From contig CAZKFF010000001.1 of NCBI GenBank assembly GCA_964552045.1, positions 64,120 through 128,119 on the forward strand: 64,000 nt of DNA, read 5' to 3'. The DNA comes from an uncultured Candidatus Saccharibacteria bacterium (GTDB lineage Bacteria; Patescibacteriota; Minisyncoccia; Phycocordibacterales; UBA918). The notes under the pieces are model-generated. The model saw only the letters and a list, made by a program, of their open reading frames with translations, was not told where the DNA came from and ran no database searches. Positions within the stretch are counted from its first letter, which is position 1. The number at the start of each line of letters is the position of its first letter. The translations under genes were made by a program, and so were the position numbers. Below are positions 21,212 through 62,690 of this stretch, piece after piece.

Positions 21212-21253
21212 GTAGTAAATAATATACCGCCCGAATCTCTTCGGATGCCAATA

Positions 21254-21325
21254 GTTGTGCATCGCACAACTGCTCGCATCCAAATTGATAGTGGTTCCGG
21301 ACGCAAGCATGGGTGCTTGCGTCCG
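21254..21325 (-). other. two stable hairpins in the intergenic region between the secreted-protein gene and the sorted-protein gene
   Basis: gttgtgc-atc-gcacaac has a 7-bp stem. ccggacgcaagca-tggg-tgcttgcgtccg has a 12-bp stem at 21298-21325. No clear U-tract. Confidence 0.4.
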
Positions 21326-21332
21326 AAGACCG

Positions 21333-41514: not shown

Positions 41515-41516
41515 AC

Positions 41517-42410: not shown

Positions 42411-42430
42411 AACTACCCTTTAGTATATCC

Positions 42431-43576
42431 TTAGGAGAGACCAATGAGGCGTGCGAGCTGTTTATAGGCGGCGGCAGGATCCTTTGCGCGTGCGATCGCT
42501 GAACCGGGAGCAAAACGATTTACTCCCGCGTCGCGCAGACGCACGATAGTGTCCGCATTGACCGCGCCGTCGACTGCGATCTCCAGAGAAGGATGCGCTG
42601 TACGGAGCGCGGACACAGTCGCAATAGTCCGTTCGTCGAACGGCTCCCCTTGGACGCCGACATGCGCAATACCCATCACCTGCACAAAGTCTATCTCCGG
42701 GATATATGGCTCAAGCTCCGCATGCGGAATGTCATTGGTGACCGCAATACCGATTGAGTACCGATGCTCGCGCGCATGCGCGATGCATGCGGTGTATTCC
42801 TCTGTGCTGCCGAAGTGTATGACCACGCGCTTGACTCCCATGGATGCGCACAGGTCTAAAAAACGTTCGGGGTGCACGCACATACAGTCGATCTCAAGAT
42901 CAAATTGTTTTGTATAGCGCTGCAGCTTACCCAATTCTGCCTCGGCATTGGTCACCAGAAATGGCCACGAAGTGTGCGGCACGAATACTCCATCGACGAT
43001 ATCTATCTGGACCGCGTCTGCCGTTCCCGCAAGGGCATCAAGCAGTGTGGTAATTTCCTCAAAGGATGAGGCAGGAAGCGACGGCGCAAGAGCCAGGGAT
43101 GTATTCGGCGCGTGCACGCTGCTCAGCGTCTCGAGTTCCTCTATGCGGCGGTCATATTTCTCTTTTGGCTCATGCGCAGAAGCGAGCCAGAGCGCCACCG
43201 CCTTCTTGGCGGTCTGCTGGTCGAGGAATCGTGCGCCGAGCGACAGCACATTTGCGTCATTGTGCTGCCGTGAAAGCTTCACGATCTCATCACTTCCGCC
43301 GTAATAGACCGCAGCGCGGACGTCATGGAACCGGTTGGCCATCATGGCCTCCCCCTGCCCTGAGCCGCCGAGAATGATCGCCTTGGTCTGAAGCGGCCGC
43401 GCACTTACTTCCCTCGCAGCTTTCGCTATAAAGTCAGTGAAGTCATCCTCCGCATCGTACGCGTATGCGCCGCAGTCAACAACCTCATACCCGAGCTCAT
43501 CTCTGACATAGTCGATGAGCTTGTCTTTGAGTTCGAATCCGGCATGGTCAGAAGCAAAATAAATTGTATCCTCCAT
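42431..43576 (-). CDS. fusion protein: ribose-5-phosphate isomerase B (N-terminal) + ribulose-phosphate 3-epimerase (C-terminal)
   Basis: N-terminus IYFASDHAGFELKDKLIDYVRDELGYEVVDCG...ILGGSGQGEAMMANR is RpiB/LacAB-like. C-terminus IDIVDGVFVPHTSWP...VMGIAHVGVQGEPF is an Rpe TIM barrel. Confidence 0.75.
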   Translation of the reverse strand: MEDTIYFASDHAGFELKDKLIDYVRDELGYEVVDCGAYAYDAEDDFTDFIAKAAREVSARPLQTKAIILGGSGQGEAMMANRFHDVRAAVYYGGSDEIVKLSRQHNDANVLSLGARFLDQQTAKKAVALWLASAHEPKEKYDRRIEELETLSSVHAPNTSLALAPSLPASSFEEITTLLDALAGTADAVQIDIVDGVFVPHTSWPFLVTNAEAELGKLQRYTKQFDLEIDCMCVHPERFLDLCASMGVKRVVIHFGSTEEYTACIAHAREHRYSIGIAVTNDIPHAELEPYIPEIDFVQVMGIAHVGVQGEPFDERTIATVSALRTAHPSLEIAVDGAVNADTIVRLRDAGVNRFAPGSAIARAKDPAAAYKQLARLIGLS

Positions 43577-44706: not shown

Positions 44707-46407
44707 CTACTTCCGCTTTGCGAGCACTGCGAGGATGAAAACCACGCAACACAGCGCGATGCACGCCAGGAAGAACGGGTGCACGAAGAACAAGGGCAGG
44801 CCGGAGATGACCGCAGCCCCGGTAGTACTGCTCTCGATGAAGACAAAAGATGCACAGAGCAAACCGGTACAGAACAGCACGATACACAGTACTTTCAGGG
44901 CAGCAACGGCTGTGTGACGAGTCATCTTTTTACGCACGATCACATACACAAGCAATAACAGAAGCCCGAGGGCAATCGCCCAAAAGAAAGGCCCTGTAGT
45001 GTAGAAAATCCGCTCCGTACTTCCCGACAAGCCTGTGGGCGATAATGGTGCGCCTGCAAGGAAACGGTACGAGCCTTCAACCTGCTGCATCTTCTGAGTC
45101 TTGTGGTCAAACACGGTAACGACAACCGGATAGACTCCGGCTGTGCGAAGCGGTGCTATATGTGCTTCATAGTCTGTCTTGTCCTTGTTGATGCGCAGGA
45201 GGAACGAGAACGTGAGATTCTGATCCACCGGATGCGTGAACGTCACGCGGACGGTCTTCAGATGTTCCGGGAGCTTTTCATATGCTATGCGCAGAAGAAA
45301 CGGTGCATTCGCATCAAGCGTGCCGCCCTGAACCTGTGCGCCATTCTGTATGACTTCGATATCGCTAAACGACAGCGGGAATGCCGGATAATGCTCGGTG
45401 TCACCGCTGGTTGCAATGGCCTGTTGCGCTGCGGCAACCACCGCGCCTGAGGAAATGTTGCCCTGCGTGTCGTACGCAAATACCGTATAGTACTGCGCGT
45501 CATATTTTGAAAGTGCCCGGCTGTCTGAAAAGACTTCGGCATCTCCCTGATACGCGATGAACCCGTCATACGGATCATCCGGATAGAACAAGTGGCTCCG
45601 CACAATGCGCACAAAGGCGAAATCGGGATCGCTTGGGTTCTCCCATGAAAGCTCCACATCATTGCCAGACAGAGCCGCGCGCAAACCGGAGACATTCGAC
45701 GGCGGCGTTATGTCGGGTGCTTCAAGTGTTTTGAATTCTCCTGATGAAAGCGCGTGCCTGCGCCCGTCGCGGTCAAAGCCGAGCAGCTGATAAGAATAGG
45801 TCGTACCGGGCTCCAGATCGGTGATTACAGTCGAGTGGGTATGCTTGAAGAGCTCGTTTGAGACGAACCCGAGTTCATATGCTGCGGTCCTGCCCCAGCG
45901 CAGTTCAAACTGTGCATAGCCTCTTGTCTGCCATTCCACCTGTACGGTTCGGATATCCGGGATGACATCAAAATGGATCAGGTACAGATCGCTTCCACCG
46001 CCTCCATCGTCAGACACAGGCGCAGGTATGTCCAACGTAGTGGTGGAAACTGCCGCTGACGATGACGAGAAGTTTTCGGATGTATCGAAAGCGGTCACAA
46101 AATAGCTGTACAAGGTGTCCGCAGTCAGGCCGGTATCCGCATAGGTGGTCAAAGATGTGGTTGCAATCTGGATTGCATCACGGAAGACCTGGTATCCGCC
46201 AAGCACGGTATCGTCAGTTGCGGCATTCCATGAAAGGTCGATCTGCGAAGAAGCAACCGGCGTTGCGCTTAGTCCTGTCGGAGTCGTGGGCGGATTGGCG
46301 TCCCCCACTATACGCATGCGTACATTGAACTCGTCCGTCTGTGCCTGCGCTGCAAAAACGCAGACGAAGAGAAATACAGCCACATGTATGCAGAGTCTGG
46401 AGATCAT
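44707..46407 (-). CDS. surface protein with fibronectin-type-III-like domains and C-terminal membrane anchor(s)
   Basis: Signal peptide MISRLCIHVAVFLFVCVFAAQA. FN3-like PPTTPTGLSATPVASSQIDLSWNAATDD...YSYFVTAFD. C-terminal FYTTG, then TM, then RKK, then further TM segments. Start overlaps the upstream gene stop. Confidence 0.6.
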   Translation of the reverse strand: MISRLCIHVAVFLFVCVFAAQAQTDEFNVRMRIVGDANPPTTPTGLSATPVASSQIDLSWNAATDDTVLGGYQVFRDAIQIATTSLTTYADTGLTADTLYSYFVTAFDTSENFSSSSAAVSTTTLDIPAPVSDDGGGGSDLYLIHFDVIPDIRTVQVEWQTRGYAQFELRWGRTAAYELGFVSNELFKHTHSTVITDLEPGTTYSYQLLGFDRDGRRHALSSGEFKTLEAPDITPPSNVSGLRAALSGNDVELSWENPSDPDFAFVRIVRSHLFYPDDPYDGFIAYQGDAEVFSDSRALSKYDAQYYTVFAYDTQGNISSGAVVAAAQQAIATSGDTEHYPAFPLSFSDIEVIQNGAQVQGGTLDANAPFLLRIAYEKLPEHLKTVRVTFTHPVDQNLTFSFLLRINKDKTDYEAHIAPLRTAGVYPVVVTVFDHKTQKMQQVEGSYRFLAGAPLSPTGLSGSTERIFYTTGPFFWAIALGLLLLLVYVIVRKKMTRHTAVAALKVLCIVLFCTGLLCASFVFIESSTTGAAVISGLPLFFVHPFFLACIALCCVVFILAVLAKRK

Positions 46408-47165
46408 AAGGGCAGTGCGGTTACTGTTGTTGTGGCAACATACGAGCCGGGCGCCTGGATGACCGACCCCCCCACCCCAACACGGAAGCGGATCGATGTC
46501 GTCGCGCCTGTGGGATGATTGGCGCTTCCGTGAGACGCAATTATTTCAGGTGCGGTAGAAAGACCGTCCCAGCATGCAAATGGCGTTTCTCCGGAGCCGG
46601 TATTGCAGGACGACCCATTGTCCTTAAAGCGCTGCACAACGTCAGCGCCTTCGGGAGTGTAGCCCAAATGCGCGTCAGCTGCGCCAGTTTCGAACGAGAA
46701 GTCCGGATCGCCCTGCGGTGCATAATCTGCGATCGCATCGGGTCCTTTCTGCATAGCCGGACTGTCTGATGCGGCAATGGAAAGCGCATAGCCGGAAGGA
46801 CTGTCGGTGATGACCGTAACAGTGGTCGATCCGTTCGCTATGCCGCCTGACACACCCGGAATCGACGGAGAGAGCGCAATATCCGATGACGCGCTGAGCG
46901 CGATGTATACCTCCTGCATCTGCTGATATCCCGCCTTCAATGCGTAGTTCGTACTCGTGGACACACCGCTTGCAAGTTCTCCCGCAGTGGATTCCAAGAC
47001 ATAATTGGTTGAAGTGGAAAGCCCGCCACTGAAGTTGATGCTGTCGCTCTGGATCTGAAAGTTACTGCTCTCCATCACCTGCGCGCCGGCACAATGAAGG
47101 CTGGCTACGACCAAAAGTGTAGCGATACTTGCTTGAGATAATGGCGAGAATAATTCTCTCCACAT
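46404..47165 (-). CDS. secreted beta-rich protein, paralog A
   Basis: Signal peptide. Shares the blocks DNGSSCNTGSGETPFACW and ATTSIRFRV with the 48278..48964 gene. Confidence 0.55.
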   Translation of the reverse strand: MWRELFSPLSQASIATLLVVASLHCAGAQVMESSNFQIQSDSINFSGGLSTSTNYVLESTAGELASGVSTSTNYALKAGYQQMQEVYIALSASSDIALSPSIPGVSGGIANGSTTVTVITDSPSGYALSIAASDSPAMQKGPDAIADYAPQGDPDFSFETGAADAHLGYTPEGADVVQRFKDNGSSCNTGSGETPFACWDGLSTAPEIIASHGSANHPTGATTSIRFRVGVGGSVIQAPGSYVATTTVTALPL

Positions 47166-47173
47166 GGCACAGG

Positions 47174-48262
47174 TTACTTAGACTTTCGTTTAAACTCGAA
47201 ATTTCGTGCAAAGAAGCGAATTATGAAGAAGACGAGGAAGAGTCCGAGGAATACCGGCAATACGATCTTCCACGGAAGCACCCAGAAGGTTATGGTCTGC
47301 GTATCGATAATGTCATCATACCCGCGGTTGATGTGTGCAGTTGCTGTGTACTTGCCGATGAGCAGCTCACGGTTCCAGGAGATCTCCCGCGAACGCAGCG
47401 ATTTCGGCAATGCAAACCACGGATCAAGCTCAACGAAGCCGACCTCCTCATTGAAGAGGTTCGTAATCCTGATCTCTCCGTACGGATTCAGGTGGAGGTC
47501 TCCTTTGTTCTCGTACAGTATCTGAAAATTGATCGGGCCTTCAGTGAAGAACTGCTGATCGGGTACCGTAGCAAAACTGTGCAACTCTCCTGCTATCTCC
47601 GTTTCTCCAGGAATGGTCAAGAAAAAAAGCGTTCCTACACGGGAAATGATAGCTGAAGACGGTGAGGCACCATTCGTTTCAGCAATGTCGGCCTTCTTCG
47701 AAACGGTTGTAACAAGCACACTGCCGTAGCGTCCGCCCGGTTCAGCATTTGGAGGGACTGCAACAGTTACTGGAATACGAGCCCGTTGATTGTGTTTAAG
47801 CGTCAGCTTCTTGGTCGGAAGCTGTATATAGTCTTTGAGCGTATAGGGACCCCTGTCATCACCGAGAAGCACGACAGGTGTCCGAGGATCATCGGAGCCG
47901 GTTGCGTCTTCAACAAACAGTTCAAACTCGCGTTCCTCGCCTGTTCTGTTTGAGACGATGATCTCAACAGTCTTAGATGAGCCGGGAGCGACCGTGAGTT
48001 CAGTCTTGCCCGGTCCGACCACAAAGTCACCAGGAACCTCGTCCGACGCAGAGGTGAGCATTTCGGTTGAGTATCCGGCCTGGGCAGGAGTTTGAACGGT
48101 TCCGGCCTCCTGGGTAGGATCCCCTTCCATAGCGTCTGTGCCAGTTGCTGTTTCCTGTGCAGAAGCCGGAAGGCCGCCGAGCAGCATGGCTGCAAACAAA
48201 ACAACAACTACCGCACACACAGAGGCGGTAGTTGCTGTCTTAAAGGAGTGACCATTCATCAT
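47174..48262 (-). CDS. cell-surface protein with N-terminal signal peptide and C-terminal TM anchor + basic tail
   Basis: Signal ...VCAVVVVLFAAMLLGGLPASA. C-terminal LPVFLGLFLVFFIIRFFARNFEFKRKSK. Architecture resembles DUF916/DUF3324-type surface proteins (inference). Confidence 0.55.
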   Translation of the reverse strand: MMNGHSFKTATTASVCAVVVVLFAAMLLGGLPASAQETATGTDAMEGDPTQEAGTVQTPAQAGYSTEMLTSASDEVPGDFVVGPGKTELTVAPGSSKTVEIIVSNRTGEEREFELFVEDATGSDDPRTPVVLLGDDRGPYTLKDYIQLPTKKLTLKHNQRARIPVTVAVPPNAEPGGRYGSVLVTTVSKKADIAETNGASPSSAIISRVGTLFFLTIPGETEIAGELHSFATVPDQQFFTEGPINFQILYENKGDLHLNPYGEIRITNLFNEEVGFVELDPWFALPKSLRSREISWNRELLIGKYTATAHINRGYDDIIDTQTITFWVLPWKIVLPVFLGLFLVFFIIRFFARNFEFKRKSK

Positions 48263-48277
48263 TAGAATGATTTTATG

Positions 48278-48964
48278 CTAGTTAGTTGTGGCGGTCAACG
48301 TAGCAGTTGCTGTGTAAAATCCGGTTGAAACTGCAGGACTTGGATTGGAAGGCACCAGAACGCGGAAGCCGATTGTGGTTGTTGCTCCTGAAAGCGGTGT
48401 TGCGGTACTTCGACTAATGATCGTTTCTGCTGCGTCATCAGGATCGAGCCAACATGTGTTTGCCGTATCCCCGGAACCAGTATTACATGCAGAGCCATTG
48501 TCTGCGAACGAAGGATCAAGATCAGAAGATGATGAGGCTGCGACCGTATAACCAAACTGTGCATACGTCTCAGCGCCGAAACCATAATCCGGTACGCCGA
48601 CAGCTGTTGGATTGTAGTTTGAGATATATCCTCCGCCGCCATCCTTTGTCATGGCAGTCGTGCTTGAAAATGCGATGGTCATATTATAGCCGGCTGTATT
48701 GTTGGTATTCACGCGGACCGTATACGAACCGTCTGATTGACCTCCAGTGAGACCAGCAATGTTTGGAGACATAACCACATCAGTTGATGTTGCGATGAAG
48801 GCGATCTCAGCAGTGATCTCCTGGGTCACTTCAAATGTATCGGTTGCCTGAGCCAGTCCTACCTGCGGCTCAAGCATGAAGAATGAAGCAAGCGCCAACA
48901 GCGACGCGAGCGTTGCGGCAACCAGTGCGCCAAAGGTTGAATGCCTGATAAGTGTAAGGGTCAT
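48278..48964 (-). CDS. secreted beta-rich protein, paralog B
   Basis: Signal peptide. Conserved blocks DNGSACNTGSGDTANTCW and ATTTIGFRV are shared with paralog A. Confidence 0.55.
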   Translation of the reverse strand: MTLTLIRHSTFGALVAATLASLLALASFFMLEPQVGLAQATDTFEVTQEITAEIAFIATSTDVVMSPNIAGLTGGQSDGSYTVRVNTNNTAGYNMTIAFSSTTAMTKDGGGGYISNYNPTAVGVPDYGFGAETYAQFGYTVAASSSSDLDPSFADNGSACNTGSGDTANTCWLDPDDAAETIISRSTATPLSGATTTIGFRVLVPSNPSPAVSTGFYTATATLTATTN

Positions 48965-49065: not shown

Positions 49066-49099
49066 AAATAAGGACACTTTATAAAGTGTCCTTATTTTG
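49066..49099. terminator. palindromic terminator hairpin
   Basis: aataaggacacttTATAaagtgtccttatt is a perfect palindrome. T-runs on both sides. Lies downstream of the 49120..50355 gene. Confidence 0.55.
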
Positions 49100-49119: not shown

Positions 49120-50355
49120 TTATGTCTCCTGCGAGGTCGGCAAGACCTTGACCGTTGCCTCAGCCGATCGCGTTGTGGAGCCAAGTGTGCATTCGAGCGT
49201 GTACGTTGATTCCGAAGTGATGCCGACCACTGTTCCCTCTCCTTTAACCTCTGTTACAGACATGCCAGGGCCTTTCACGGTACAATTTTCCGCATTGCCT
49301 CCGTCCCAAGTGACCGTCACCTCACCTCCATAACGGATAAGTCCAGGCACAGCACTGATAGATATGTTGGACATCGTCAATGGATTATCTACCGCACAAG
49401 ACAAGTAGGTATATGCGCTGCTGCCGGAAAGTGTACCGTCGGTACAGGTACGGTTTATTGAGCTGCATGTTTCGCCGTCCGGAACCAGATTTTCATCGTA
49501 CAGTTTGCGGGTCGAACCATCGGCTATAGTGACGCCATTGACCGAACAATCTCTTTTGACCGTCGGGGTCGGCGACGAAGGCTGCGCTGGCGTCTGCGTT
49601 GCTGGTGTCGGGGTTGTCTTTGGAGTTGTTTTCGGCGTCGGTGCCGGGTCAATGGTACATGAGGAGTACTTGAACTTGTTCTTTCCGGAAAGATCGCCAT
49701 CGTCACATGTGCGTTTTATGAATTCGCATGTCTTTCCATAGTCAACATTCCGGTCCTTGTAGAATTTCCTCGATTTCCCGTCCTTTACCGTGACGCCATC
49801 AAGTTTGCAATCCTTCGGTTTTTCGCACACGAGCTCAGTGGTGCTCCAGGAGAAGAAGAATAATTGGTGCTTTACTGTCTTCTGTTCGCACCAGCTCTCC
49901 TTATAACAGGTTCCTTGGTAGAGGACGTATCCATTTTTACATTGCGGCGTCGGTGTGCGGGGTGTGGGATTATTCGGCGTCGGATCATCATTATTCAAAC
50001 CACAGGGGTCGTTTGGACCAGAACAGGCACTCGGTGTGCCACCATATGAGGCCTCTGAGGGACTCTGCGAGTATGAACCCTGACGGTAATATGAACTCTG
50101 CGAATACCCACTGGGAAGTGTCGCAGATATGGGCGAGGGAACGCCGAAACCTGTATCTGTTCCGGTTAAACCACCCGCATTGCATGACGGACAGCCCGAA
50201 TCAGAGAGTGCACCCGATGGATTGCCCGCCGTGCCACTATTGACCAGTGCCCGCTGATCCTCGTCGGTAAGCCGCGCGTTAGCAATTATGGGCATCGCGT
50301 ATAGCAATACGAGGGCGAAGCAAATGTAAACGTACGGACGTAAATATTTATTCAT
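49120..50355 (-). CDS. secreted Cys-rich protein with tandem Cys-bounded domains, Pro/Thr linkers and a short Tyr-rich S-Y-Y-x-Q segment
   Basis: Signal peptide MNKYLRPYVYICFALVLLYAMPIIANA. SGYSQSSYYRQGSYSQS. Two homologous modules C..DGVT..DG..RK.Y.....G.TC....RTC.DG.LSG. Linker TPKTTPKTTPTPATQTPAQP. C-terminal beta-domain ending C-T-L-G. Confidence 0.55.
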   Translation of the reverse strand: MNKYLRPYVYICFALVLLYAMPIIANARLTDEDQRALVNSGTAGNPSGALSDSGCPSCNAGGLTGTDTGFGVPSPISATLPSGYSQSSYYRQGSYSQSPSEASYGGTPSACSGPNDPCGLNNDDPTPNNPTPRTPTPQCKNGYVLYQGTCYKESWCEQKTVKHQLFFFSWSTTELVCEKPKDCKLDGVTVKDGKSRKFYKDRNVDYGKTCEFIKRTCDDGDLSGKNKFKYSSCTIDPAPTPKTTPKTTPTPATQTPAQPSSPTPTVKRDCSVNGVTIADGSTRKLYDENLVPDGETCSSINRTCTDGTLSGSSAYTYLSCAVDNPLTMSNISISAVPGLIRYGGEVTVTWDGGNAENCTVKGPGMSVTEVKGEGTVVGITSESTYTLECTLGSTTRSAEATVKVLPTSQET

Positions 50356-51599: not shown

Positions 51600-54500
51600 C
51601 TATATTTCGCCGCCGCCGCCGCCACCGCCGCCGCCTGCCTGGGTATACGGCTTTACCTGAATGGCATCGACCTTGACCGTATTCTGATCCGGCTGGTCAA
51701 TGACACGGACGAAGAAGTTGCCGCCTGAGAGGTCACTTGGACTCCAGCTGCGGCCCCAGGTATCGGACGCACCGCCGAGCGTATAGACTGCGTCGCTTCC
51801 CGTGAGCACGGATGTTGCCTTTGTCGCCGTCACACTTTCGTCGCCATTCCAGGAAAGTGCCACCTGAATCGTTCCCGCCCCGGTTGAACCGGACGCTTCA
51901 AGCTTCACTTCGATACCGGTCACCGTATTCCCTGCCGGCACATTGAAGCCGAAGACACTGTACGACTGACGAAGGTCCGCCGATGCAGCCGTTGCGTAGA
52001 CGTCGTCGGAGGTAAGCGCATTGCTGCCGTTTGTCCACTCATTGTAGAGTTCTCCGGTTGCGGTCGGCGCTTTGAAGCCGGGTTCGTTGCCAATCTGCTC
52101 TCCATTATCCTCTTCCCCTACTCCGCCGCCGCCGTTGTTGCCGCCGCCGCCGATGTCACCATCACCTTCTGGTGCATCGTCTCCCACTTCAGCGCTGAAG
52201 AGACTGCCGCCGCCCTTATTGCCGCCGCGGATATGCTGCACTGAGGTCACACCTCCGAGCGGGACAACAACTCCTTCAGTCGTCGCGCCCGTGCCGGTAA
52301 CACCGTTACGATTGAGGTCAATGGTCAGATACTCATTGGTATGTACGCCCGTGACATCTCCCGTAAGGACATAGTCTTTGGTCGTCGTTGCATCCCATGA
52401 TGTTGAGAATGTTATTGTCCCTGATTGTCCCGTGATGGCTAACACGCCAGTGCCGCCGATCTGGTTGTCAGAAGCGTCTGCCGTACCGTTGCTGTTATTG
52501 TCGCGGTAGAGCTTAAAGTCCCCAATATTACTGCTATCGATACGATGGATGCCGGAGAGTGTAAATACAGCTGACGTGATCGTTGCATTCTCTCCAACAG
52601 GTGCAAGATTAAAGGCAAACAATGGTTCGTCGCTCTTGTTCTGGTAGCTGAATGCATTGTCGATCTGACCAGCGGTGTGATCTGCAAGGTTTGCTGCACC
52701 ATAGATAGCCACAGTCTTATCATCATGAACGCCAGTAGCTGCCACAGGATCAAGTGTATAAGCGTTGATATCGTCACCCGTATAACCCATCACATAGAGC
52801 GTGGTACCGTCGTTGTTGAAGAGTGCCGCAGCAGGAGCAGATTCCTGTGCGGCGACCGAGAACGCGATCTCGTCGAAGGTCGCCGTTGAGATGTCGTACG
52901 GAGTGGAGAGCGTATAGGCATTGATGTCTTGTCCTGTTAAGCCCACAACATACAATACAGTACCGGTGTTGTTGAAGAATATATCAGAGGGGGCGTTTTC
53001 TTCTGAAAGGACCGAGAACGCGATCTCGTCGAAGGTCGCCGTTGAGATGTCGTACGGAGTGGAGAGCGTATAGGCATTGATCTCCCCACCAGATGCTTGC
53101 ACAACATACAGGACGGTACCGGTGTTGTTGAATTCCATATCATAGGGGAAGGATCCCTCTGCCGAAACCGAGAACGCGATCTCGTCGAAGGTCGCCGTTG
53201 AGATGTCATACGGAGTGGAGAGCGTATAGGTATTGATGTCGAGACCAGAAGTACCCATCACATAAAGAACGGTGCCGGTGTTATTGAAGAGCATTGAACG
53301 GGGGTTGATTTCCTGTGCGGCGACCGAGAGAGCGATCTCGTCGAAGGTGGCAGTTGAGATGTCATACGGAGTGGAGAGCGTATAGGCATTGATGTCATCA
53401 CCGGTAGAACCCATCACATAGAGCGTGGTACCGTTGTTGTTGAAGAGCATTGCACGAGGAGCGTCTTCTTGTGAAGAGACAGAAAGGGAGATTCCATTGA
53501 AGATGGCAGTTGAGACATCGTATGAACCTGACTCTTGATCAACAACAAACGACAGCGTCGATGTTGGCGCAGCAAGTGCGTTAAATTGTGTAAATGAAAG
53601 CCCCGAAATAGTGAGGGTATCCCCTCCTGAGAAGTCATTCGAGACGGGTACGACGAGTGTGGCACCGCTGTCCTCATACGAAACAGGATTAGAGACTTTG
53701 CCTGAGGCGGTTCCTCCAAAGACTGCAGTGGTATCGGTCGTATCCCACTTCATATTTGTCTTTGTAGTGTCAATGGTAATACGAAGGTCATTCGCTGCCG
53801 TAATCGTCGGGGTCTCGGCGTCGGTTATGGTAATGGCGGCAATAGACGTGGTCGCCTGGCCGTATCCAAAGATCTGGTTCGATGCTGAGGAAATCGTCCC
53901 CGCCCCGCCTCCACCTGCTGGCGCTGTGATGTCCCAGCAGTCGTTATTGCCGCTGTCGGTCGAGCTGGCTGCAGTGATGGTGCTTGCGCTGTCGCATGCG
54001 TTTGAGTCCATCACATCGACATACGTAACGGATATCTGGGTATCTGCATCGAGGCCCCACTGGGTTCCGTCCTGTGTTGAACGGAGTACGATCTCGTCAT
54101 TCTCTGCGCCGTCTATCTGTATAGAGGCGAAGGTTGAGGTCGCATCCGCAGGGAATTCCAGAGTAATACCGGGAGTGATCGCTACCAATTTTGCAGCCTC
54201 TACCGGATCAGTGAAGGTGGTGACCGGAACTCCGCCAGTATTGCCGGGCGAAGTCATCACGAGATCGGTACCAGATTGCGCTACCGCAACAAACGTACCG
54301 TTGCCGTAGGTCACTGACCGCCAAGAACTCGCTGCTCCTTCTTGTCGAGCAGTCCACGTGATTCCGTCAGGCGAGGTCATCACTTGATCAGTGCCACCGA
54401 GAGATACCGCAACAAACAGGCCGTTGCCGTAGGAAACGGAATGCCAGAAGGAAGCTTCTGTCGCCGAATGCGAGGTCCACGTGATGCCGTCCTCTGAGCT

Positions 54501-57500
54501 CATGACTCGGTTGGTGCCGGCTTGCGCGACGGCCACGAACGTGCCATTGCCATGCACCACGGAAATCCATGAACTTGCTTCAGCAGCACGTGCCGTCCAG
54601 GTGATGCCGTCAGGAGAGGTCATGACGCGGTTGGTGCCATCTTGAGAAACAGCGACAAATAAGCCATCGCCGTAGGTTACAGAAGTCCATGTGTTCGCCT
54701 CCGTTGCGGATCGTGCCGTCCACGTAATGCCGTCAGGAGAGGTCATGACGCGGTTGGTGCCGTCGGAAGAAACAGCGACAAACAGGTCGTCGCCGTAGGT
54801 GACTGATCGCCACTGGTTCGCTTCTGCGGCTGTGCGTACAGTCCAGGTAATGCCGTCGGGCGAGGTCATGACGCGGTTGGTGCCATCTTGAGAAACAGCA
54901 ACAAATAAGCCATCGCCGTAGGTGACTGATCGCCACTGGTTCGCTGCTGCGGCTGTGCGTGCAGTCCAGGTAATGCCGTCGGGCGAGGTCATGACGCGGT
55001 TGGTGCCCGTGAGTGCTACCGCGACGAACTGGCCGTTGCCGTAGGTGACTGAGTGCCACTGGTTCGCTTCTGCGGCTGTGCGTACTGTCCATGTTTGTCC
55101 GCCTTCGACCACTGGCGTATCCACTGAAGCGACCTCAAGCGTACCGAAGCTGGAGCTGCCGGTCAGGTTCCCACTGAAGGTTTGTGTGCCTCCATGTATG
55201 GTCGTCGTACCGTTCCCCCAGTCTATGGTCCCATTGTTCTCATAATCACCCGCAATCGAGAACTGCGACGGTGCTGTTACATACGTGTCCTCTGTAATGC
55301 TCAAGTCACTGGTCGAAGCATTGTTGGCAAACACCACTTCGCCGAGGAGCTCCCCGTCTGCAGAAGTCATGACGCAGTTTGTGGTACAGGTCGCTCCTGC
55401 GCTTGTCTGCTGTGCAATCGCGACAAATTTATTTTCTCCGTAAACAATATCCCACCATTTATTGACATTTATCGATGCGCGAGGTGTCCAATTTGCTCCA
55501 TTGTCACTAGAGGTCATGATCTGGTTTGTGCCGTCAGGTGAGACCGCAACAAAGAGGCCGCCGCCGTACGTGACTGACTGCCAGCTGTTCGCTTCATATC
55601 CGCTCGATACAATACTCCATGTGATGCCATCCTCTGAGGTCATGACATTATCATAGGCAACCGCGACAAACGTGCCACCGCCGTATCCCAAGCCGTACCA
55701 TGTACTACCCGGCACATTGCGCGATGTCCACGTGATGCCGTCGGGCGAGGTCATGACCAGATCGGTCCCCGTCGATGCGATCGCCACGTAGAGGCCTTCT
55801 CCGTAGACCACTCTCTCCCATTTGTTTGCCGCCGCAGCAGTACGTGCAGTCCACGTGATGCCGTCGGGCGAGGTCATGACGCAGCTGGTGCTGCAGGTGG
55901 CCGTACCATCGATATTGTTGTGGGCAATCGCAACAAACTGCCCTCCTCCATACGTTACCGAGTACCATTCGTTCTGCGCAGCTGCTGACCTGTTGGTCCA
56001 CGTGACTCCGTCAGGTGAGGTCATCACCTGATTGGTGCCGTTGCCAGCAACCGCAACAAACAGGCCTTCGCCATAGGTCAGGCTATTCCACGAGTTCGCC
56101 TGCGATGCTGAACGAGAGGTCCACGTGATGCCGTCAGGCGAGGTCATGACGCGGTTGGTGCCCGTGTATGCAAGCGCAACAAATGTGCCGTTGCCGTAGG
56201 TTATCGCAGACCAGGTACTGTTCTCCGATTGATTTTGTGCTGTCCAGTTCGCCCCGTCCGGTACGAACAGCTGCGGGGCATCAATGGTAATATCGTTGAA
56301 TGCCGAGCTTCCCGTCATGTTGCCCGAGAGAGTTGTCGTACCCGTGTAGGTTGTGGTTTCTGAGTAATCAAGACTGTACGGGAAAATATCCGAGGCAGAC
56401 TCTCCGTGGACATACATCTTCGAACCGTCGGGTTTGAACTCAAAACCATCAGGGAAGTCCTCCTGACTCGTAACCGAGATTGAAGTTCCGTCATATACTG
56501 CCGTGGTGACATCCCACGGGGTTGAAAGCGTGTATGGGGAGATATAGTCGTTGAGATAACCGCTGACGAACATCTTCGTTCCATCGTCGTTGAAGGCCAC
56601 ATCCTGGATATTCGTCTGCTGTGTATTGACCGAGAAGGACTTGCTGTCGTAGCTCGCACTTGAGATATCCCACGGGGTTGAAAGCGTATACGAATAGACC
56701 CGATTGTTTGCATCACCGCCGATGTACATGCGCGTGCCATCCTGCTTGAAGGTCATACCGAATGGTGTTGCATCCTGCGTCGTTACTGAAAAACTGACAC
56801 TGTCGTAGCTTGCTGTGGTGACATCCCATGCAGAAGACAGTGTGTACTGGAAGACGCGGTCATTGCCGGAACCGAGCGCAAACATCTTCGTACCGTCGCT
56901 TGAGAACGAGACTTTTTCGACAAAGCTATCCTGGGATGCAGTTGAGAATTCATTGACGTAACTCGCTGTGGTGACATCCCATGCAGAAGACAGCGAGTAT
57001 TCGGCAACGGCATCGCTGTTGTAGCCGTTGATGAAGAATTTCGTGCCGTCAGGCTTGAATGCGAGGCTTGTCACCTGCGACTCCTGCGAGGTCACCGAGT
57101 ACGCCACACCATCATAGGTTGCGGTGGTGATGTCCCAACTGGCAATCGCTGTTGTTGACGCTGTGGTGGTCCCGACAATATAGGTGAGGCCGCTTCCGCT
57201 GTCGAAGGTGCCGTTATTGGTGTAGTCGCCGGTTATGGTGAGCACCTCCGGCGCTTCCACAGTCGCGCCCGAAGCGATCGTAAAGTCGCTCGTCGAGGCA
57301 TTATCAGAGAACGTCTTAGTGCCATTTCCGGAGAAAGAGACTGCATTGAATGCGCTCGATCCGGTCATGCCGCCCGAAAACGCTTGTATGCCTGAACCGT
57401 CGAAATTGACGATACCGTTATGATGCGCGAAGACGCCGGTGTTCGCATAGTCGCCAGAGATCGTCAATTCAGCCGGAGCGATAAGCGTCGTCTGTCCGCC

Positions 57501-60500
57501 GATGGTGAGATCAGTTGTGGATGCTGTGGAACTAAGACTGATCGTATTGCCGTATGTACCGTCGCTGGAGTAGAGAACCTGATTGGTCCCATCCGTACTT
57601 GCCGACACAAACTTCCCCTCACCATAGGTCATCGAAATGAAGAAGTTCGTATTGGGAGTCGTGACCTCAGTCCACGTGATGCCGTCAGGCGAGATCATAA
57701 GGTATGTACTGCCCGTGAGCGGGTCTCCCAGTGCGGCAAAATATCCACCGCCGTACGCAAGTCCATACCAATCGGAATTGCCCGGAGTTATTCTCGTAGT
57801 CCACGTGATGCCGTCCTCTGAGGACATAGCGGTATCGGTCTCACTGACCGCAACGAATCTCCCTTCTCCATACACAACCCGCTGCCATCCGCTCGCGCTA
57901 GCCGCACTGCGGCTGGTCCAGGTAATGCCATCGGGTGAGGTCATCACGCGGTCAGAACCGGTACTCGCGACCGCCACGAAGAGGCCGTTGCCATAGGTCA
58001 CGTTTTTCCATTGATTTGCCTCAGGCGCGACCACCCCCGTCCAAATGATGCCATCTTCAGAGACCATCACGCGATATCCGCCGCCAGTAGTGTTACAGCT
58101 TGATGCATTCACGCCGCAGGCCACTGCTACGAAGAGGCCATTGCCGTAGGTGACGCTACTCCAGTTGTTCATCGCAGCTGCGGTACGGCTGGTCCAGGTA
58201 ATGCCGTCAGGCGAGGTCATGACGCGATTCGATCCAGTACTGGCGACTGCCACAAACAATCCGTCTCCATAGGTAACCCACTGCCATGAGTCTCCAACCG
58301 GCTGGGTTCGCGTAGTCCAGGTGACCCCGTCTGGAGATGACATGACATCTCCGTCCCATGAGACCGCTACGAAGGTTCCCCCACCGTACGTGATTGCGCT
58401 CCATTGTGATGATTTTGATGCGCTTCCCTCTTGCCATACGGCTGCACTATTAAAGAATTCACCCGATGAGGTGGCGGTCACATTGCCGAGTGTAGATGAG
58501 CCAGTGAGTGTTCCTGACACCGTACTGCTGCCCGTGATCACCAGTAGGCCATCATTTGAAAAGGTTCCGTTATTGATGAGGTTGCCGTTGACGGTGAGCG
58601 TTCCCGACGGGGCATTCAGTGCAGCCGTACCGCCGATGGTGAGATCGGAGGTCTCCGCGTCGTCCGCGAAGGTGATGTCGCTGTCCTCTGCACTGATTGT
58701 GAACACATTGAAGGCGTTCTCCCCCGTCATATTCCCTGCAAAGACCTTATCAGTGTCCGGCGTTCCGGTGCCTTCTGTTCCTGTCGTGTACTGGTACACC
58801 GCATCATCATCAATATCGAGTATGAACATCTTTACGCCGTCATCGCTGAACTTCACCTGCAATCCTCCACTGACCTGTGCTATTGGCGAGAAGCTGTTCG
58901 TGTAGCTTGCAGTACTGATATCAAAAGGCGTAGAAAGTGTATATCCGTACACATCCTGCCACCCGAAGAAAAAGAGTTTGGTTCCGTCAGTACTGAAATG
59001 TATACCTGAAACACTCGTATCCTGTGCCGAGAAAGAGAAACTCTCTTCATATACGGCAGTTGATACATCCCATGCCGGAGAAAGGGTGTATGCATGGATA
59101 CTGTCGCTGTTATCGCCAGCGATATACAAGCGTGTTCCGTCTGCGTTGAATGCAAGACCAAAAGGTTTTGTTTCTTCTGTGAAGAAGAACGCGTCTACAT
59201 AGGTTGCAGTAGTGATGTCGTACGGGGTGGAGAGCGACAGTTCTGCGACCGCATCACTTGAGTCCCCAGTGAAATACACTTTTGTACCGTCGTCCTTTAC
59301 GTATACCGCATTCGGAAAATCATCAAGTCCACCCACATTGAATGCGCCCTGGTATGAAGCGGTGCTGATATCCCACGGGGTACCCAGCGTGTACCAGCGG
59401 ATATTGTCAGCATCATAGCCAAGCACATAAAGATGTTCCCCATCACGGCTAAAATCCATTCCGTAGGCATTGGTTTCAGTAACGCCGAGCGAGACCGCGT
59501 CATACGAAGCGCTTGAGAGATCGTAGCCAACTGTATTGTTCTCCACCGCGACAGTCACTGTTCCATCGCCAGCGGTAAATACGCCGTCATTGGTGTAGTC
59601 TCCGTTGATCGTCAATACGGACGGAGCTACGACAGTCGAGGTTGCGGTGATAGAAAGATCGTTCACTTCCGCATCTGTTGAAAATGTCTGTGTCGTCAGG
59701 GCGTACGAACCGCTCTCTGAGGTCATGACTCGATCAGTACCATCAAGCGAGACCGCGACGAACTTCCCTTCCGCAAAGGTGACCGAACTCAGTGAATTTG
59801 CAACAGGCGTAGTTGCAAGCGACCACGTGATGCCGTCGGGTGAGGTCATGATACGGTCGTTTGTCGTATGGAAGCTTGAGACCGCTACATAGACCCCACC
59901 TCCGTATGCCACATCAACAACATTGCTGATGTCCGGCTTCGTGCGCGAGGTCCAGGTGGTGCCGTCTTGCGAGGTCATGATGTCTCCCCCCCATGAAGTG
60001 GCCACGAAGAGGCCGTTGCCGTAGCCGAGTCCGACCCATTGTTGGGCCGACGCAGCGGTGCGATTCGTCCAGGTGGTGCCGTCAGGTGAGGTCATAACGC
60101 GGTTCGTACCATCCTGAGCGACGGCGACGAAGATGTTGTTCCCATATGCCACACTATTCCATGTGTTCGCCTGGGAAGCGCTCTTCATGCTCCAGGTGAT
60201 GCCGTCGGGCGAGGTCATGACACGATCGGTCCCCGAGCCCGCGACTGCGACGAAGGTGCCGTTGCCATAGGCGACGGATTTCCACGCGCTCAGGCTGACG
60301 CTCGTCGTATCCCATGTAATGCCGTCGCTCGAATATGCCGCCCGATCGGTTCCGTCGCTCGAGACGGCGACAAACGTATCATTTCCGAATGTGACGGATT
60401 CCCACGTGTTGTCAGGGAGTGAATCGTCGTGCTCTACCCAATTCTCGCCATCAGTTGAAGTCATAACGCCCGTGCCGCTTCCGACTGTCACAAACAGTCC

Positions 60501-62690
60501 ATTACCGTAGGCGATGGATCTCCATGTCCAGGTGGGGACGTTGTGCGTTGCCCATGTCTCTCCGTCATGTTCAAAACTTGAGACCAACAAACGCCGCGCT
60601 CCGTCTGCAGTCATCACGCGGTTGGTTCCGGAGTCTGCAACCGCAACCAGCAATCCGTCTCCGTAGACCACGGATACCCACGAGCTTGCGTTCGCATCAT
60701 CAACGGCCGTCCACGTGATGCCGTCGGGCGAGGTCATGACCTGATCACTAACATCTGCCACTGCAACAGCCACGAAGTAATCTCCTGTATGCGTCACTGC
60801 TGTCCACGATCCGGTTTCGGGAACAGTACGGACTGTCCACGTGATGCCATCAGGAGAACTCATGACGCTATGGGTACCCTCGTTGAGAGAGCCTACCGCT
60901 ACATACATGCCGTCGCCGTAGGCTACGCTATTCCACCAGTTGTGTTCGGCTGCGGTTTGATTCGTCCATGTGATGCCGTCGGGCGAGGTCTCGACACGAT
61001 TGTCACCCACAGCCACAAACTGTCCATTGCCGTACGTCACAGAGTAGATACCATTCCCCGAGGAAGCCGTTCCTGAAACCCACGAAAGGCCGTCATCTGA
61101 ATACATTGCCGTACCCGTGAATGAGAGCGCCACAAATCTGCCCTCGCCATAACTGATCGAGGACCAGGCTTGCGCTGAAGCGGCACTGCGTGACGTCCAC
61201 GTGATGCCGTCGGGTGAGGTCATGACGCGGTTGGTGCCGTCTTCAGACACTGCCACAAATAAACCTTCCCCGTAGGTCACTTGTGTCCAGGTATTTGCTG
61301 CAGCAGCAGTGCGGTTCGTCCACGTGATGCCGTCGGGCGAGGTCATGACGCGGTTGGTGCCGCTTTCAGCCAAAGCAACAAACAGGCCTTCACCATAGGT
61401 GACTGATTTCCACAGATTGGCCTGTGATGCGCTGCGTGCAGTCCAATGCGTACCATCGTGTATCACCAGTTCCGTTGAGGAGCCAGTTATCAGGTTCCCC
61501 ATTTCGACAGCATCGCCGCTTATGGTGGAGTCTGTCGGCATCTGCGTTTCACCGGAAGACAGGTCAAGTGTACCGTTGTTTCCCAGGTCTCCCCCGAACA
61601 CTGTGGTGGTGGCACCAGTGAACGAGTCTCCATCACCCACATAGAATTTCTGTCCCTCTTCGATAAAGAGCATGCCTTCAACTTCATTGGCTATGAATGG
61701 AACATCACTATCTTGTAGCCCATCGTAAATAGCCATGTCGTCGATGGTCACCGCATCGGTGTCCTCATTGCGGACTATGACATGATCCTTATAGAGATCC
61801 AATCCCGATACAGCATTGGAGGCATCTGCGAGCGTAGTTATCACGGCAGCTCTGGTAGCCGGATCGCCATCGACCCATGTGACCACCGGCGTGCCCGCGG
61901 TAATGCCGGATGAGTTTGGTGTTATGGTCCAGTCTCCACTGCTGTCTGTTGTCGCAGACGCAACAGTCACTGGAGTGGTTGTACCTATGGCGATCTTAAT
62001 GGTCTTTCCAGATGTAATAGCCGTACTGCCTTCATCGGAATACAGAGTTCCCGATAAGCTCAGCGGAGGAAGCGTATAGTCGACCTCAATAGTGACATAG
62101 TCCACGTCGACATCAGCATTTGCAGCGGTAGCGAGTACGCCGAGCGCAATCCCGAAATCTGGATCTTTTATCCAGCTTGCTGTCAGCGTATTTCCCCACA
62201 GATTGGACGAACCTCCTTTCGTGATAACGGTGGAATTCGTGGTCGTCAGTGCCGTTGGGGTCGAGCACAGATTTGTGCCGACTTTTGCCCCGGAAGCATT
62301 GAGCAGCTGGCAGAGATCGAGCGAGCCGGACCCGTTTCCTGACCTGTAGAATGCATTGACACGTACGGTTATTCCATTGATGGTCGAGCCATCCGGAATG
62401 GAGCTGAAGTCAAAACCGGTCGCTTTAAGTACAGTGGTCTGGTCTCCGCTATCGTACTGCGATGCTGTCACATTGGCGGTGGCTCCATCATCTGCATAGA
62501 TGTTCGTTGGGGTGACCCAGTCATTGTCTGACCACGGTGATTCAGAAACGCCTGTACCCGAGGTCGGAAATACTGCACCAGTGGTTGCCGCTTCTGCTGT
62601 ATGCGTTCCAAAAAAGAACAGCGCGCTGAGCAGGAGCACATATATATGCATCTTTGCCTGCGTATTCTGTTGTAATAAATGAGTTTTCAT
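51600..62690 (-). CDS. giant secreted surface protein (3696 aa) built from Asp-box/BNR and beta-propeller-like repeats
   Basis: Signal peptide; a more likely start is the ATG at 62649-62651, giving MHIYVLLLSALFFFGTHTAEA. Dozens of S-x-D-G-x-T-W Asp-box units in repeats of about 40 aa (NRVMTSPDGITWT.R.AA.AN.W.SVTYGNGLFVAV). Blocks of about 50-aa repeats (YTLSTPWDISTASYD..SFSV..Q........F..DGTK.Y). Related N- and C-terminal domains. Gly-run at the C-terminus. Confidence 0.8.
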   Translation of the reverse strand: MKTHLLQQNTQAKMHIYVLLLSALFFFGTHTAEAATTGAVFPTSGTGVSESPWSDNDWVTPTNIYADDGATANVTASQYDSGDQTTVLKATGFDFSSIPDGSTINGITVRVNAFYRSGNGSGSLDLCQLLNASGAKVGTNLCSTPTALTTTNSTVITKGGSSNLWGNTLTASWIKDPDFGIALGVLATAANADVDVDYVTIEVDYTLPPLSLSGTLYSDEGSTAITSGKTIKIAIGTTTPVTVASATTDSSGDWTITPNSSGITAGTPVVTWVDGDPATRAAVITTLADASNAVSGLDLYKDHVIVRNEDTDAVTIDDMAIYDGLQDSDVPFIANEVEGMLFIEEGQKFYVGDGDSFTGATTTVFGGDLGNNGTLDLSSGETQMPTDSTISGDAVEMGNLITGSSTELVIHDGTHWTARSASQANLWKSVTYGEGLFVALAESGTNRVMTSPDGITWTNRTAAAANTWTQVTYGEGLFVAVSEDGTNRVMTSPDGITWTSRSAASAQAWSSISYGEGRFVALSFTGTAMYSDDGLSWVSGTASSGNGIYSVTYGNGQFVAVGDNRVETSPDGITWTNQTAAEHNWWNSVAYGDGMYVAVGSLNEGTHSVMSSPDGITWTVRTVPETGSWTAVTHTGDYFVAVAVADVSDQVMTSPDGITWTAVDDANASSWVSVVYGDGLLVAVADSGTNRVMTADGARRLLVSSFEHDGETWATHNVPTWTWRSIAYGNGLFVTVGSGTGVMTSTDGENWVEHDDSLPDNTWESVTFGNDTFVAVSSDGTDRAAYSSDGITWDTTSVSLSAWKSVAYGNGTFVAVAGSGTDRVMTSPDGITWSMKSASQANTWNSVAYGNNIFVAVAQDGTNRVMTSPDGTTWTNRTAASAQQWVGLGYGNGLFVATSWGGDIMTSQDGTTWTSRTKPDISNVVDVAYGGGVYVAVSSFHTTNDRIMTSPDGITWSLATTPVANSLSSVTFAEGKFVAVSLDGTDRVMTSESGSYALTTQTFSTDAEVNDLSITATSTVVAPSVLTINGDYTNDGVFTAGDGTVTVAVENNTVGYDLSSASYDAVSLGVTETNAYGMDFSRDGEHLYVLGYDADNIRWYTLGTPWDISTASYQGAFNVGGLDDFPNAVYVKDDGTKVYFTGDSSDAVAELSLSTPYDITTATYVDAFFFTEETKPFGLAFNADGTRLYIAGDNSDSIHAYTLSPAWDVSTAVYEESFSFSAQDTSVSGIHFSTDGTKLFFFGWQDVYGYTLSTPFDISTASYTNSFSPIAQVSGGLQVKFSDDGVKMFILDIDDDAVYQYTTGTEGTGTPDTDKVFAGNMTGENAFNVFTISAEDSDITFADDAETSDLTIGGTAALNAPSGTLTVNGNLINNGTFSNDGLLVITGSSTVSGTLTGSSTLGNVTATSSGEFFNSAAVWQEGSASKSSQWSAITYGGGTFVAVSWDGDVMSSPDGVTWTTRTQPVGDSWQWVTYGDGLFVAVASTGSNRVMTSPDGITWTSRTAAAMNNWSSVTYGNGLFVAVACGVNASSCNTTGGGYRVMVSEDGIIWTGVVAPEANQWKNVTYGNGLFVAVASTGSDRVMTSPDGITWTSRSAASASGWQRVVYGEGRFVAVSETDTAMSSEDGITWTTRITPGNSDWYGLAYGGGYFAALGDPLTGSTYLMISPDGITWTEVTTPNTNFFISMTYGEGKFVSASTDGTNQVLYSSDGTYGNTISLSSTASTTDLTIGGQTTLIAPAELTISGDYANTGVFAHHNGIVNFDGSGIQAFSGGMTGSSAFNAVSFSGNGTKTFSDNASTSDFTIASGATVEAPEVLTITGDYTNNGTFDSGSGLTYIVGTTTASTTAIASWDITTATYDGVAYSVTSQESQVTSLAFKPDGTKFFINGYNSDAVAEYSLSSAWDVTTASYVNEFSTASQDSFVEKVSFSSDGTKMFALGSGNDRVFQYTLSSAWDVTTASYDSVSFSVTTQDATPFGMTFKQDGTRMYIGGDANNRVYSYTLSTPWDISSASYDSKSFSVNTQQTNIQDVAFNDDGTKMFVSGYLNDYISPYTLSTPWDVTTAVYDGTSISVTSQEDFPDGFEFKPDGSKMYVHGESASDIFPYSLDYSETTTYTGTTTLSGNMTGSSAFNDITIDAPQLFVPDGANWTAQNQSENSTWSAITYGNGTFVALAYTGTNRVMTSPDGITWTSRSASQANSWNSLTYGEGLFVAVAGNGTNQVMTSPDGVTWTNRSAAAQNEWYSVTYGGGQFVAIAHNNIDGTATCSTSCVMTSPDGITWTARTAAAANKWERVVYGEGLYVAIASTGTDLVMTSPDGITWTSRNVPGSTWYGLGYGGGTFVAVAYDNVMTSEDGITWSIVSSGYEANSWQSVTYGGGLFVAVSPDGTNQIMTSSDNGANWTPRASINVNKWWDIVYGENKFVAIAQQTSAGATCTTNCVMTSADGELLGEVVFANNASTSDLSITEDTYVTAPSQFSIAGDYENNGTIDWGNGTTTIHGGTQTFSGNLTGSSSFGTLEVASVDTPVVEGGQTWTVRTAAEANQWHSVTYGNGQFVAVALTGTNRVMTSPDGITWTARTAAAANQWRSVTYGDGLFVAVSQDGTNRVMTSPDGITWTVRTAAEANQWRSVTYGDDLFVAVSSDGTNRVMTSPDGITWTARSATEANTWTSVTYGDGLFVAVSQDGTNRVMTSPDGITWTARAAEASSWISVVHGNGTFVAVAQAGTNRVMSSEDGITWTSHSATEASFWHSVSYGNGLFVAVSLGGTDQVMTSPDGITWTARQEGAASSWRSVTYGNGTFVAVAQSGTDLVMTSPGNTGGVPVTTFTDPVEAAKLVAITPGITLEFPADATSTFASIQIDGAENDEIVLRSTQDGTQWGLDADTQISVTYVDVMDSNACDSASTITAASSTDSGNNDCWDITAPAGGGGAGTISSASNQIFGYGQATTSIAAITITDAETPTITAANDLRITIDTTKTNMKWDTTDTTAVFGGTASGKVSNPVSYEDSGATLVVPVSNDFSGGDTLTISGLSFTQFNALAAPTSTLSFVVDQESGSYDVSTAIFNGISLSVSSQEDAPRAMLFNNNGTTLYVMGSTGDDINAYTLSTPYDISTATFDEIALSVAAQEINPRSMLFNNTGTVLYVMGTSGLDINTYTLSTPYDISTATFDEIAFSVSAEGSFPYDMEFNNTGTVLYVVQASGGEINAYTLSTPYDISTATFDEIAFSVLSEENAPSDIFFNNTGTVLYVVGLTGQDINAYTLSTPYDISTATFDEIAFSVAAQESAPAAALFNNDGTTLYVMGYTGDDINAYTLDPVAATGVHDDKTVAIYGAANLADHTAGQIDNAFSYQNKSDEPLFAFNLAPVGENATITSAVFTLSGIHRIDSSNIGDFKLYRDNNSNGTADASDNQIGGTGVLAITGQSGTITFSTSWDATTTKDYVLTGDVTGVHTNEYLTIDLNRNGVTGTGATTEGVVVPLGGVTSVQHIRGGNKGGGSLFSAEVGDDAPEGDGDIGGGGNNGGGGVGEEDNGEQIGNEPGFKAPTATGELYNEWTNGSNALTSDDVYATAASADLRQSYSVFGFNVPAGNTVTGIEVKLEASGSTGAGTIQVALSWNGDESVTATKATSVLTGSDAVYTLGGASDTWGRSWSPSDLSGGNFFVRVIDQPDQNTVKVDAIQVKPYTQAGGGGGGGGGEI
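54300..55100 (-). repeat. near-identical ~120-nt tandem coding repeats inside the giant gene
   Basis: ccaggtaatgccgtcgggcgaggtcatgacgcggttggtgcc... recurs about every 120 nt. It encodes TVRTAAEANQWRSVTYGDGLFVAVSQDGTNRVMTSPDGITWT units. Looser copies appear elsewhere at 55700-61400. Confidence 0.8.

Follow-up and report, generated by a model that had tools for sequence, protein, structure and literature searches.

The locus described here raises the question of whether a tandem repeat inside the gene of a giant protein is a place at which that gene varies, or whether it is a fixed part of the protein's architecture. It lies in a 64-kb stretch of DNA (64,000 nucleotides, nt), referred to here as the window, whose release factor 1 has its nearest named relatives, at 74–75% identity, in Candidatus Kaiserbacteria and Patescibacteria. 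The gene is a single, uninterrupted open reading frame (ORF) of 11,091 nt on the minus strand, and it encodes a giant protein of 3696 amino acids (aa), whose N-terminus carries a hydrophobic, signal-like segment that is read from the sequence as a putative signal peptide. The original prediction placed near-identical 120-nt tandem repeats within this gene, at 54300–55100, and took them for a hotspot of recombination or phase variation that also puts the assembly at risk. The analysis reported here gives a different answer: the units are very likely the seven blades of one closed β-propeller of the EPTP/DUF6242 type, termed propeller E, and form a fixed structural repeat rather than a copy-number switch.

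The presence of tandem repeats in the gene, far beyond chance, is borne out by Tandem Repeats Finder, which over 54475–55091 returns 4.1–4.4 copies with 81–84% matches and scores of 349–724. The period is not 120 but 123 nt, i.e., 41 codons (3 × 41), with successive copies lying 123 nt apart, and the recurring anchor peptide S-P-D-G-I-T-W likewise delimits units of 41 aa. The array is located where it was predicted, although it is slightly longer, running on the minus strand over 54234–55103 with seven units, six of them full (E1–E6, 55070–54336) and the seventh truncated (54335–54234). The description of these units as near-identical does not hold. In blade register, the nucleotide identity among E1–E4 (54579–55070) is 73–84%, with one pair reaching 90% in its best register (54761–54885 versus 54884–55008), while that of E5 and E6 to the other units of the array is 59–72%; the longest exact repeat measures 46 nt (at 54839 and 54962), and the remaining exact tracts are of 31–38 nt. 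A 33-mer singled out in the original prediction has exact matches at 54852, 54975, and 61329, in addition to five further sites that differ by one to three mismatches, against a chance expectation of 0. Blades A1 and A2 of another propeller of the same protein, propeller A, are 72–78% identical in their DNA to E2–E4, and 68–74% identical to E1.

The fold encoded by these units was modeled with AlphaFold2 for aa 2522–2835, starting from an alignment of 31 homologues. The model, with a mean predicted local distance difference test (pLDDT) of 93.1 and a predicted template modeling score (pTM) of 0.89, has 28 strands that make up seven four-stranded blades, and this closed ring of seven four-stranded sheets qualifies propeller E, as a predicted structure, as a seven-bladed β-propeller. 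The last blade, E7, lacks the outer "DGITW" strand, which is supplied by the N-terminal strand QTWTVR acting as velcro, in agreement with the strand pattern of the model. Together with the Pfam matches, the model upholds the earlier assignment of the units to propeller blades. Taken alone, the propeller E domain scores 59.2 bits against EPTP (PF03736, cut-off 21) and 44.7 bits against DUF6242 (PF19755, cut-off 29), with only about 20 positions of the 42-position EPTP profile matched in each blade. Foldseek retrieves seven-bladed propellers, the best being Ycf48 (E value 3e-11) and virginiamycin B lyase (template modeling score, TM, 0.80), and a sequence search of solved structures gives a marginal WD40 match only.

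Besides the scores above the gathering cut-offs and the seven-blade ring, propeller E is tied to EPTP and DUF6242 by its homologues, which carry the same precomputed Pfam labels; however, EPTP is defined on animal proteins that are much more diverged, and DUF6242 is without an established function, with one member that co-purifies with Bacteroides BamA, which says little for a surface protein of Patescibacteria. Ycf48 and HCF136, seven-bladed propellers of the Asp-box type, share with propeller E a similar hairpin motif and the best Foldseek scores (E value 3e-11, TM 0.67–0.70), but the sequence identity is 14–16%, the hairpin S-P-D-G-I-T-W is one residue shorter than the Asp-box S-x-D-x-G-x-T-W, and no BNR family appears among the Pfam matches of either the whole protein or the E domain, so that propeller E does not classify as an Asp-box (BNR) propeller. 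A link of the giant protein to photosystem assembly is not conceivable. The blade scaffold reads W-x-SVTYGNGLFVAV-xxx-GTNRVMTSPDGITWT-x-R and is common to every blade of the whole family, and variability is highest in the pair of residues that flank the leading W and in the two or three that follow FVAV, that is, in the loop past the second strand and the linker ahead of the W of the next blade. These residues would lie on the usual ligand-binding face of propellers, and for this reason binding at the cell surface is the most likely function of the protein.

The family to which propeller E belongs is large. When the E domain was searched together with its flanks, the propeller of about 290 aa turned up in more than 7,600 proteins, at up to 74% identity, whereas the flanks are covered by none of them. 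The homologues combine the propeller with many different partner domains, and the named organisms among them include Paenibacillus, Lamprocystis, Nitrospirota, Rhizobiaceae, and Fibrella. The family consensus is identical for all seven blades, and blades from different proteins are as similar at the same position (0.596) as at different positions (0.595), compared with an average of 0.65 within one propeller; there is thus no positional orthology between the blades of this family. Seven is also the prevailing blade number. With a hidden Markov model (HMM) built from the blades of the window itself, 93 of the 138 arrays in 120 listed homologues have seven matches and 25 have eight, and in 12 of the 14 eight-match arrays inspected the extra match is the velcro strand of 10–14 aa; about 85% of the arrays count as seven-bladed. 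The internal symmetry of propeller E is typical of the family, since the median blade identity within propellers is 0.67 across the homologues, and exceeds 0.70 in 38% of them. In the DNA of the homologues, inter-blade identity climbs with protein identity: three of them have inter-blade nucleotide identities of 0.92, 0.86, and 0.77, same-codon fractions of 0.94, 0.88, and 0.65, and longest exact repeats of 126, 76, and 30 nt, respectively, and all three are seven-bladed. The homologue with 92% identical blades, which comes from another metagenome, would be a much better test case for repeat instability than propeller E.

Propeller E is the fifth of five propellers in the giant protein, each with seven blades by the blade HMM, for a total of 35 blades. 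The protein is completed by three arrays of 52-aa repeats and by paralogous terminal domains, and its Pfam matches above the cut-offs are EPTP (88.9 bits for the whole protein), DUF6242 (64.7 bits), and Lactonase. The paralogous domains, N-terminal at aa 35–210 (62061–62588, minus strand) and C-terminal at aa 3530–3685 (51636–52103, minus strand), share 26% identity over 128 aa (E value 6e-6), and neither of them has a Pfam match. An exact database look-up of the giant protein returned no record, a protein search with the unique segment directly C-terminal of the array (aa 2800–2960) gave no match, and in the genome and metagenome collections searched with the unique flank no orthologue of the gene was found, only remote domain relatives at 34–40% identity.

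Regarding the history of the units, two signals can be separated in their DNA. At identical residues, the fraction of identical codons among E1–E4 is 0.59–0.87, against 0.33 expected from the codon usage of the gene and 0.46 in its other, equally canonical blades, which indicates a younger shared DNA ancestry of E1–E4; the earlier observation that several consecutive blades are more alike in DNA than the others was correct to this extent. The number of synonymous substitutions per synonymous site (dS, Nei-Gojobori) within E1–E4 is 0.36–1.39, with a ratio of nonsynonymous to synonymous rates (dN/dS) of 0.12–0.36, whereas the median dS between arrays is at least 1.45, with 15 of the 63 pairs saturated. 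Hence, the E blades are under purifying selection, and the DNA ancestry of E1–E4 is more recent than that of the other blades, yet old, as units that differ by such dS values have not been homogenized for a long time. Seven sites among E1–E4 are parsimony-informative, and they fall into two incompatible and spatially separate classes: columns 36–60 group E1 with E3 and E2 with E4, and columns 87–108 group E1 with E2 and E3 with E4. This mosaic suggests, on thin evidence, that blades have exchanged sequence at least once in the past, and in combination with the excess of codon sharing it makes a local amplification or gene conversion, long ago, the inferred history. A simple two-blade (246-nt) duplication, hinted at by a period-246 row of Tandem Repeats Finder, was considered and rejected on the grouping of E1 with E2 and of E3 with E4 in the 3′ part.

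These observations fit a scheme with two layers. Propeller E would be the fifth propeller of a giant secreted protein of a Kaiserbacteria-like member of the Patescibacteria, and the first layer of similarity in its DNA would stem from very strong purifying selection on the family-wide blade scaffold. The second layer would be due to the old local amplification or gene conversion that left E1–E4 younger than the rest, and ring closure, with the N-terminal strand completing the last blade, would set the blade number at seven.

As for the assembly, the warning contained in the original prediction is partly borne out. With a single exception, the repeated 31-mers of the window are all located in the giant gene, namely in a second array made of 156-nt units (52854–53396), in propeller E (54604–85), and a few in propellers D and A. 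One repeat pair is left at k = 47 and at k = 55 (72 nt) and none at k = 77, and within the propeller E array every exact repeat is shorter than 47 nt. The organism is carried by the samples SRR11843817, 27, 29, 30, 34, and 36, and the short contigs of the same organism from these six sequencing runs match the window at 100% identity and break off ahead of the array; one of these independent contigs ends at 52884, exactly where the first repeated 31-mer of the 156-nt array ends. We take these contigs to have been assembled at k = 31; this would account for the absence of the giant gene's interior from the protein collection. Low coverage fragments the independent contigs as well, since most of their ends do not fall at repeats. 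The assembly risk is therefore real for small k only. A collapse of the propeller E array is unlikely because its exact repeats are shorter than ordinary reads, the units can be told apart, and the blade count is the one structurally expected. Two independent contigs end at 49068, on the sole repeated 31-mer outside the giant gene; this is a perfect 32-nt palindrome at 49066–49097, with the halves AAATAAGGACACTTTA and TAAAGTGTCCTTATTT, which lies between two secreted-protein genes and could be either a protein-binding site or a small-k assembly breakpoint.

The alternative closest to the original prediction is that of a contingency locus, in which unequal recombination or slipped-strand mispairing alters the number of blades, and with it the surface properties of the cell. 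Large identical repeats that vary in number are known in other bacterial surface proteins, for instance the 246-nt repeats of the streptococcal alpha C protein, and the array described here does resemble them in having large, tandem, in-frame units within a giant, secreted, surface-type protein, along with exact tracts of 31–46 nt and traces of past exchange between units. The differences, however, are more telling, and they make this alternative improbable. The alpha C repeats are essentially identical in DNA, and their arrays are open and bead-like, with any unit number being tolerated, while the units of propeller E have diverged by 16–27%, with dS values of 0.36–1.39, although frequent exchange would have held them near-identical, and they build a closed ring of fixed size. 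A ring sealed by a velcro strand cannot take arbitrary unit numbers, and seven blades are counted in all five propellers and in most homologues, even where the blades are 92% identical in DNA. Slippage cannot switch the gene off, given that the unit comprises exactly 41 codons and always stays in frame, so that neither the identity of units nor the switching of frame or expression that characterize contingency repeats is found here. Improbable to a similar degree is the opposite alternative, according to which E1–E4 have no recent DNA history in common and owe their similarity to purifying selection on an identical amino acid scaffold combined with codon bias. Such a scenario finds support in a scaffold that is nearly invariant over thousands of proteins, in the low dN/dS, and in the core GTNRVMTSPDGI, which keeps its codons even in propeller A blades at a distance of 6 kb. 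Against it stand the same-codon fractions of E1–E4, which exceed both the value expected from codon usage and that of the other canonical blades, their dS, two- to four-fold below that between arrays, and the homologues, in which inter-blade DNA identity rises with protein identity and exact repeats extend to 126 nt.

Whether the array is present in the organism in the form given, and not as a collapsed, expanded, or chimeric product of assembly, is a separate matter. The clustering of repeated 31-mers in the giant gene and the small-k contigs, which miss its interior and in one case stop exactly at a repeated 31-mer, count in favor of an artefact, but this explanation is very improbable in the face of exactly seven blades with proper velcro closure in a high-confidence model, 11 kb of uninterrupted reading frame, and units that all differ and so allow unique placement of reads; moreover, neither usual reads nor the largest k values of assemblers are as short as the longest exact repeats (46 nt in the array, 72 nt in the window). 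Diversity-generating retroelements, whose targets are surface proteins, occur commonly in Patescibacteria, and this prompts the idea that the units are their template and variable repeats. The chance of this is negligible: the mismatches between units have no adenine-specific pattern on either strand, a spectrum on which this candidate was rejected, and no reverse-transcriptase match was found in ten scanned ORFs, seven beside the giant gene and three within the initial 15 kb of the window. A further thought concerns a ring of fixed size whose blades are continually homogenized by gene conversion, with the 35 blades serving as donor cassettes that reshuffle the hypervariable loop residues. It is suggested by the lack of positional orthology and by inter-blade DNA identities of about 0.70–0.92 at a constant seven blades, and we regard it as a long shot; if true, conversion would be a recombination-based variation of binding specificity in an episymbiotic bacterium, with the blade number unchanged.

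The reading of the array as a fixed structural repeat rests on the closure of the ring, which fixes the number of blades at seven, and it has to be set against several points that weigh in the other direction. The structure of propeller E is a prediction. The array is known from one assembly, so that copy-number polymorphism may still exist in the population, and the exact tracts of 31–46 nt, at offsets of 123 and 246 nt, are enough in principle for rare unequal recombination. The mosaic is read from seven informative sites only. Among the homologues, at least one is apparently eight-bladed and a few are apparently six-bladed, which makes seven a strong preference and not an absolute rule, and the sample consists of the top 120 matches to a symmetric query and is therefore biased to symmetric propellers. 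With these points included, the evidence still speaks against the claim of a hotspot in which a varying number of blades would be a working mechanism: judging by its synonymous divergence, the array has long been stable, and its copy number is fixed by the fold.

Propeller E is a structure of a known kind, namely a moderately aged "highly repetitive" seven-bladed propeller. This term designates propellers with a median blade identity above 60%, for which ongoing blade amplification from single blades, followed by differentiation, has been described, together with a caution that assembling their genes is difficult (Pereira and Lupas 2022, PMC9218822). By this definition, propeller E is highly repetitive, with a median blade identity of 0.70, and propellers A–D (0.50–0.58) are not. 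Propeller E also shares with this group its tandem blades, the similarity at the nucleotide level, the lack of positional orthology, and the bias of the blade number to the family median, but it differs in being aged and partly differentiated, as its dS shows, rather than freshly amplified, and in that the younger group comprises only four of the seven blades. EPTP and DUF6242 are not mentioned in that work (PMC9218822).

The main consequence of this result is to remove a false lead, that of a tandem repeat in a surface-type gene that resembles a variation hotspot. It also provides a rule for repeat scans, in which synonymous divergence between units and ring closure should be checked before copy-number variation is proposed. 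In addition, the propeller family, being large, uncharacterized, and unusually symmetric, is a good system for the study of blade amplification. The giant protein itself, which combines five propellers of the EPTP/DUF6242 type with another three propeller-like arrays and is without an orthologue in the collections searched, is a candidate for a host-attachment protein of the Kaiserbacteria-like organism. The positions of the features discussed so far, and of those considered next, are collected in Table 1.

Table 1. Features of the giant gene, of its propellers, and of the genes downstream, with positions in the window
Feature	Position	Strand	Remarks
Giant gene	51600–62690	-	Single ORF; Pfam EPTP, DUF6242, Lactonase
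Propeller A, seven blades	60597–61424	-	aa 423–698; blade HMM; median blade identity 0.55
Propeller B, seven blades	59706–60533	-	aa 720–995; blade HMM; median blade identity 0.52
Propeller C, seven blades	57546–58415	-	aa 1426–1715; blade HMM; median blade identity 0.50
Propeller D, seven blades	55350–56225	-	aa 2156–2447; blade HMM; median blade identity 0.58
Propeller E, velcro strand and seven blades	54234–55103	-	aa 2530–2819 (HMM blades aa 2541–2819)
Blade E1	54948–55070	-	aa 2541–2581; 84% nt identity to E2; E1/E2 dS 0.36
Blade E2	54825–54947	-	aa 2582–2622; 83–84% nt identity to E1, E3, and E4; 46-nt exact tract with E1
Blade E3	54702–54824	-	aa 2623–2663; 79–83% nt identity to E1, E2, and E4
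Blade E4	54579–54701	-	aa 2664–2704; 73–83% nt identity to E1–E3; 38-nt exact tract with E2, offset 246
Blade E5, diverged 40-aa unit	54459–54581	-	59–67% nt identity to other E blades
Blade E6, diverged	54336–54458	-	59–72% nt identity to other E blades
Blade E7, truncated	54234–54335	-	HMM match to model positions about 1–34, score 52
WxL-interacting peptidoglycan-binding domain protein	47174–48262	-	
Two small secreted proteins	46404–47165, 48278–48964	-	Similar C-termini
FN3 protein	44707–46407	-	C-terminal membrane helices

Within the giant gene, the second array (52684–53607, minus strand) consists of 156-nt (52-aa) units with the sequence YTLSTPYDISTATFDEIAFSV... and matches Pfam Lactonase, a seven-bladed propeller. 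Its DNA is more repetitive than that of propeller E, and no exact repeat in the window is longer than its 72 nt at 52854–52925, which recur at 53010–53081. Some blades of the other propellers, one from propeller C and two from propeller D, have an insertion with a pair of cysteines in the loop preceding the third strand, with the peptides CGVNASSC, CSTSC, and CTTNC at about aa 1520–1540, 2250–2265, and 2425–2440 (about 58070–58130, 55895–55940, and 55370–55415 of the window), respectively. These insertions may be disulfide-stapled loops, and none of the blades of propeller E has such a cysteine-pair insertion. The giant protein closes with a run of nine glycines. Antisense to its gene, an ORF of 232 aa at 53611–54309 (plus strand) lacks support; it probably owes its existence to the long open frame on the opposite strand.

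Directly downstream of the giant gene, at 44707–48964 on the minus strand, the genes have secreted or membrane products, and the four proteins listed in Table 1 may together form a cell-surface complex. Repeats of a different kind occur elsewhere in the window, where 18-nt tandem repeats at 6700–7032 and 20885–21078 (minus strand) encode hexapeptides of the form (S/T)-Q-(S/T)-(G/S/D)-Y-Y. They are part of a prepilin-like protein (6634–7497), with the N-terminal motif GFTLVEVM, and of a secreted protein (20060–21382), respectively, and a third secreted protein with the same hexapeptide motif is encoded within 49120–50355. Finally, the region 40525–43576 (minus strand) contains two further gene arrangements of note, both called from precomputed Pfam labels on an identical contig: RpiB and ribulose-phosphate 3-epimerase domains are fused in one gene product of 381 aa, and transketolase is split into two adjacent genes of 297 and 329 aa.

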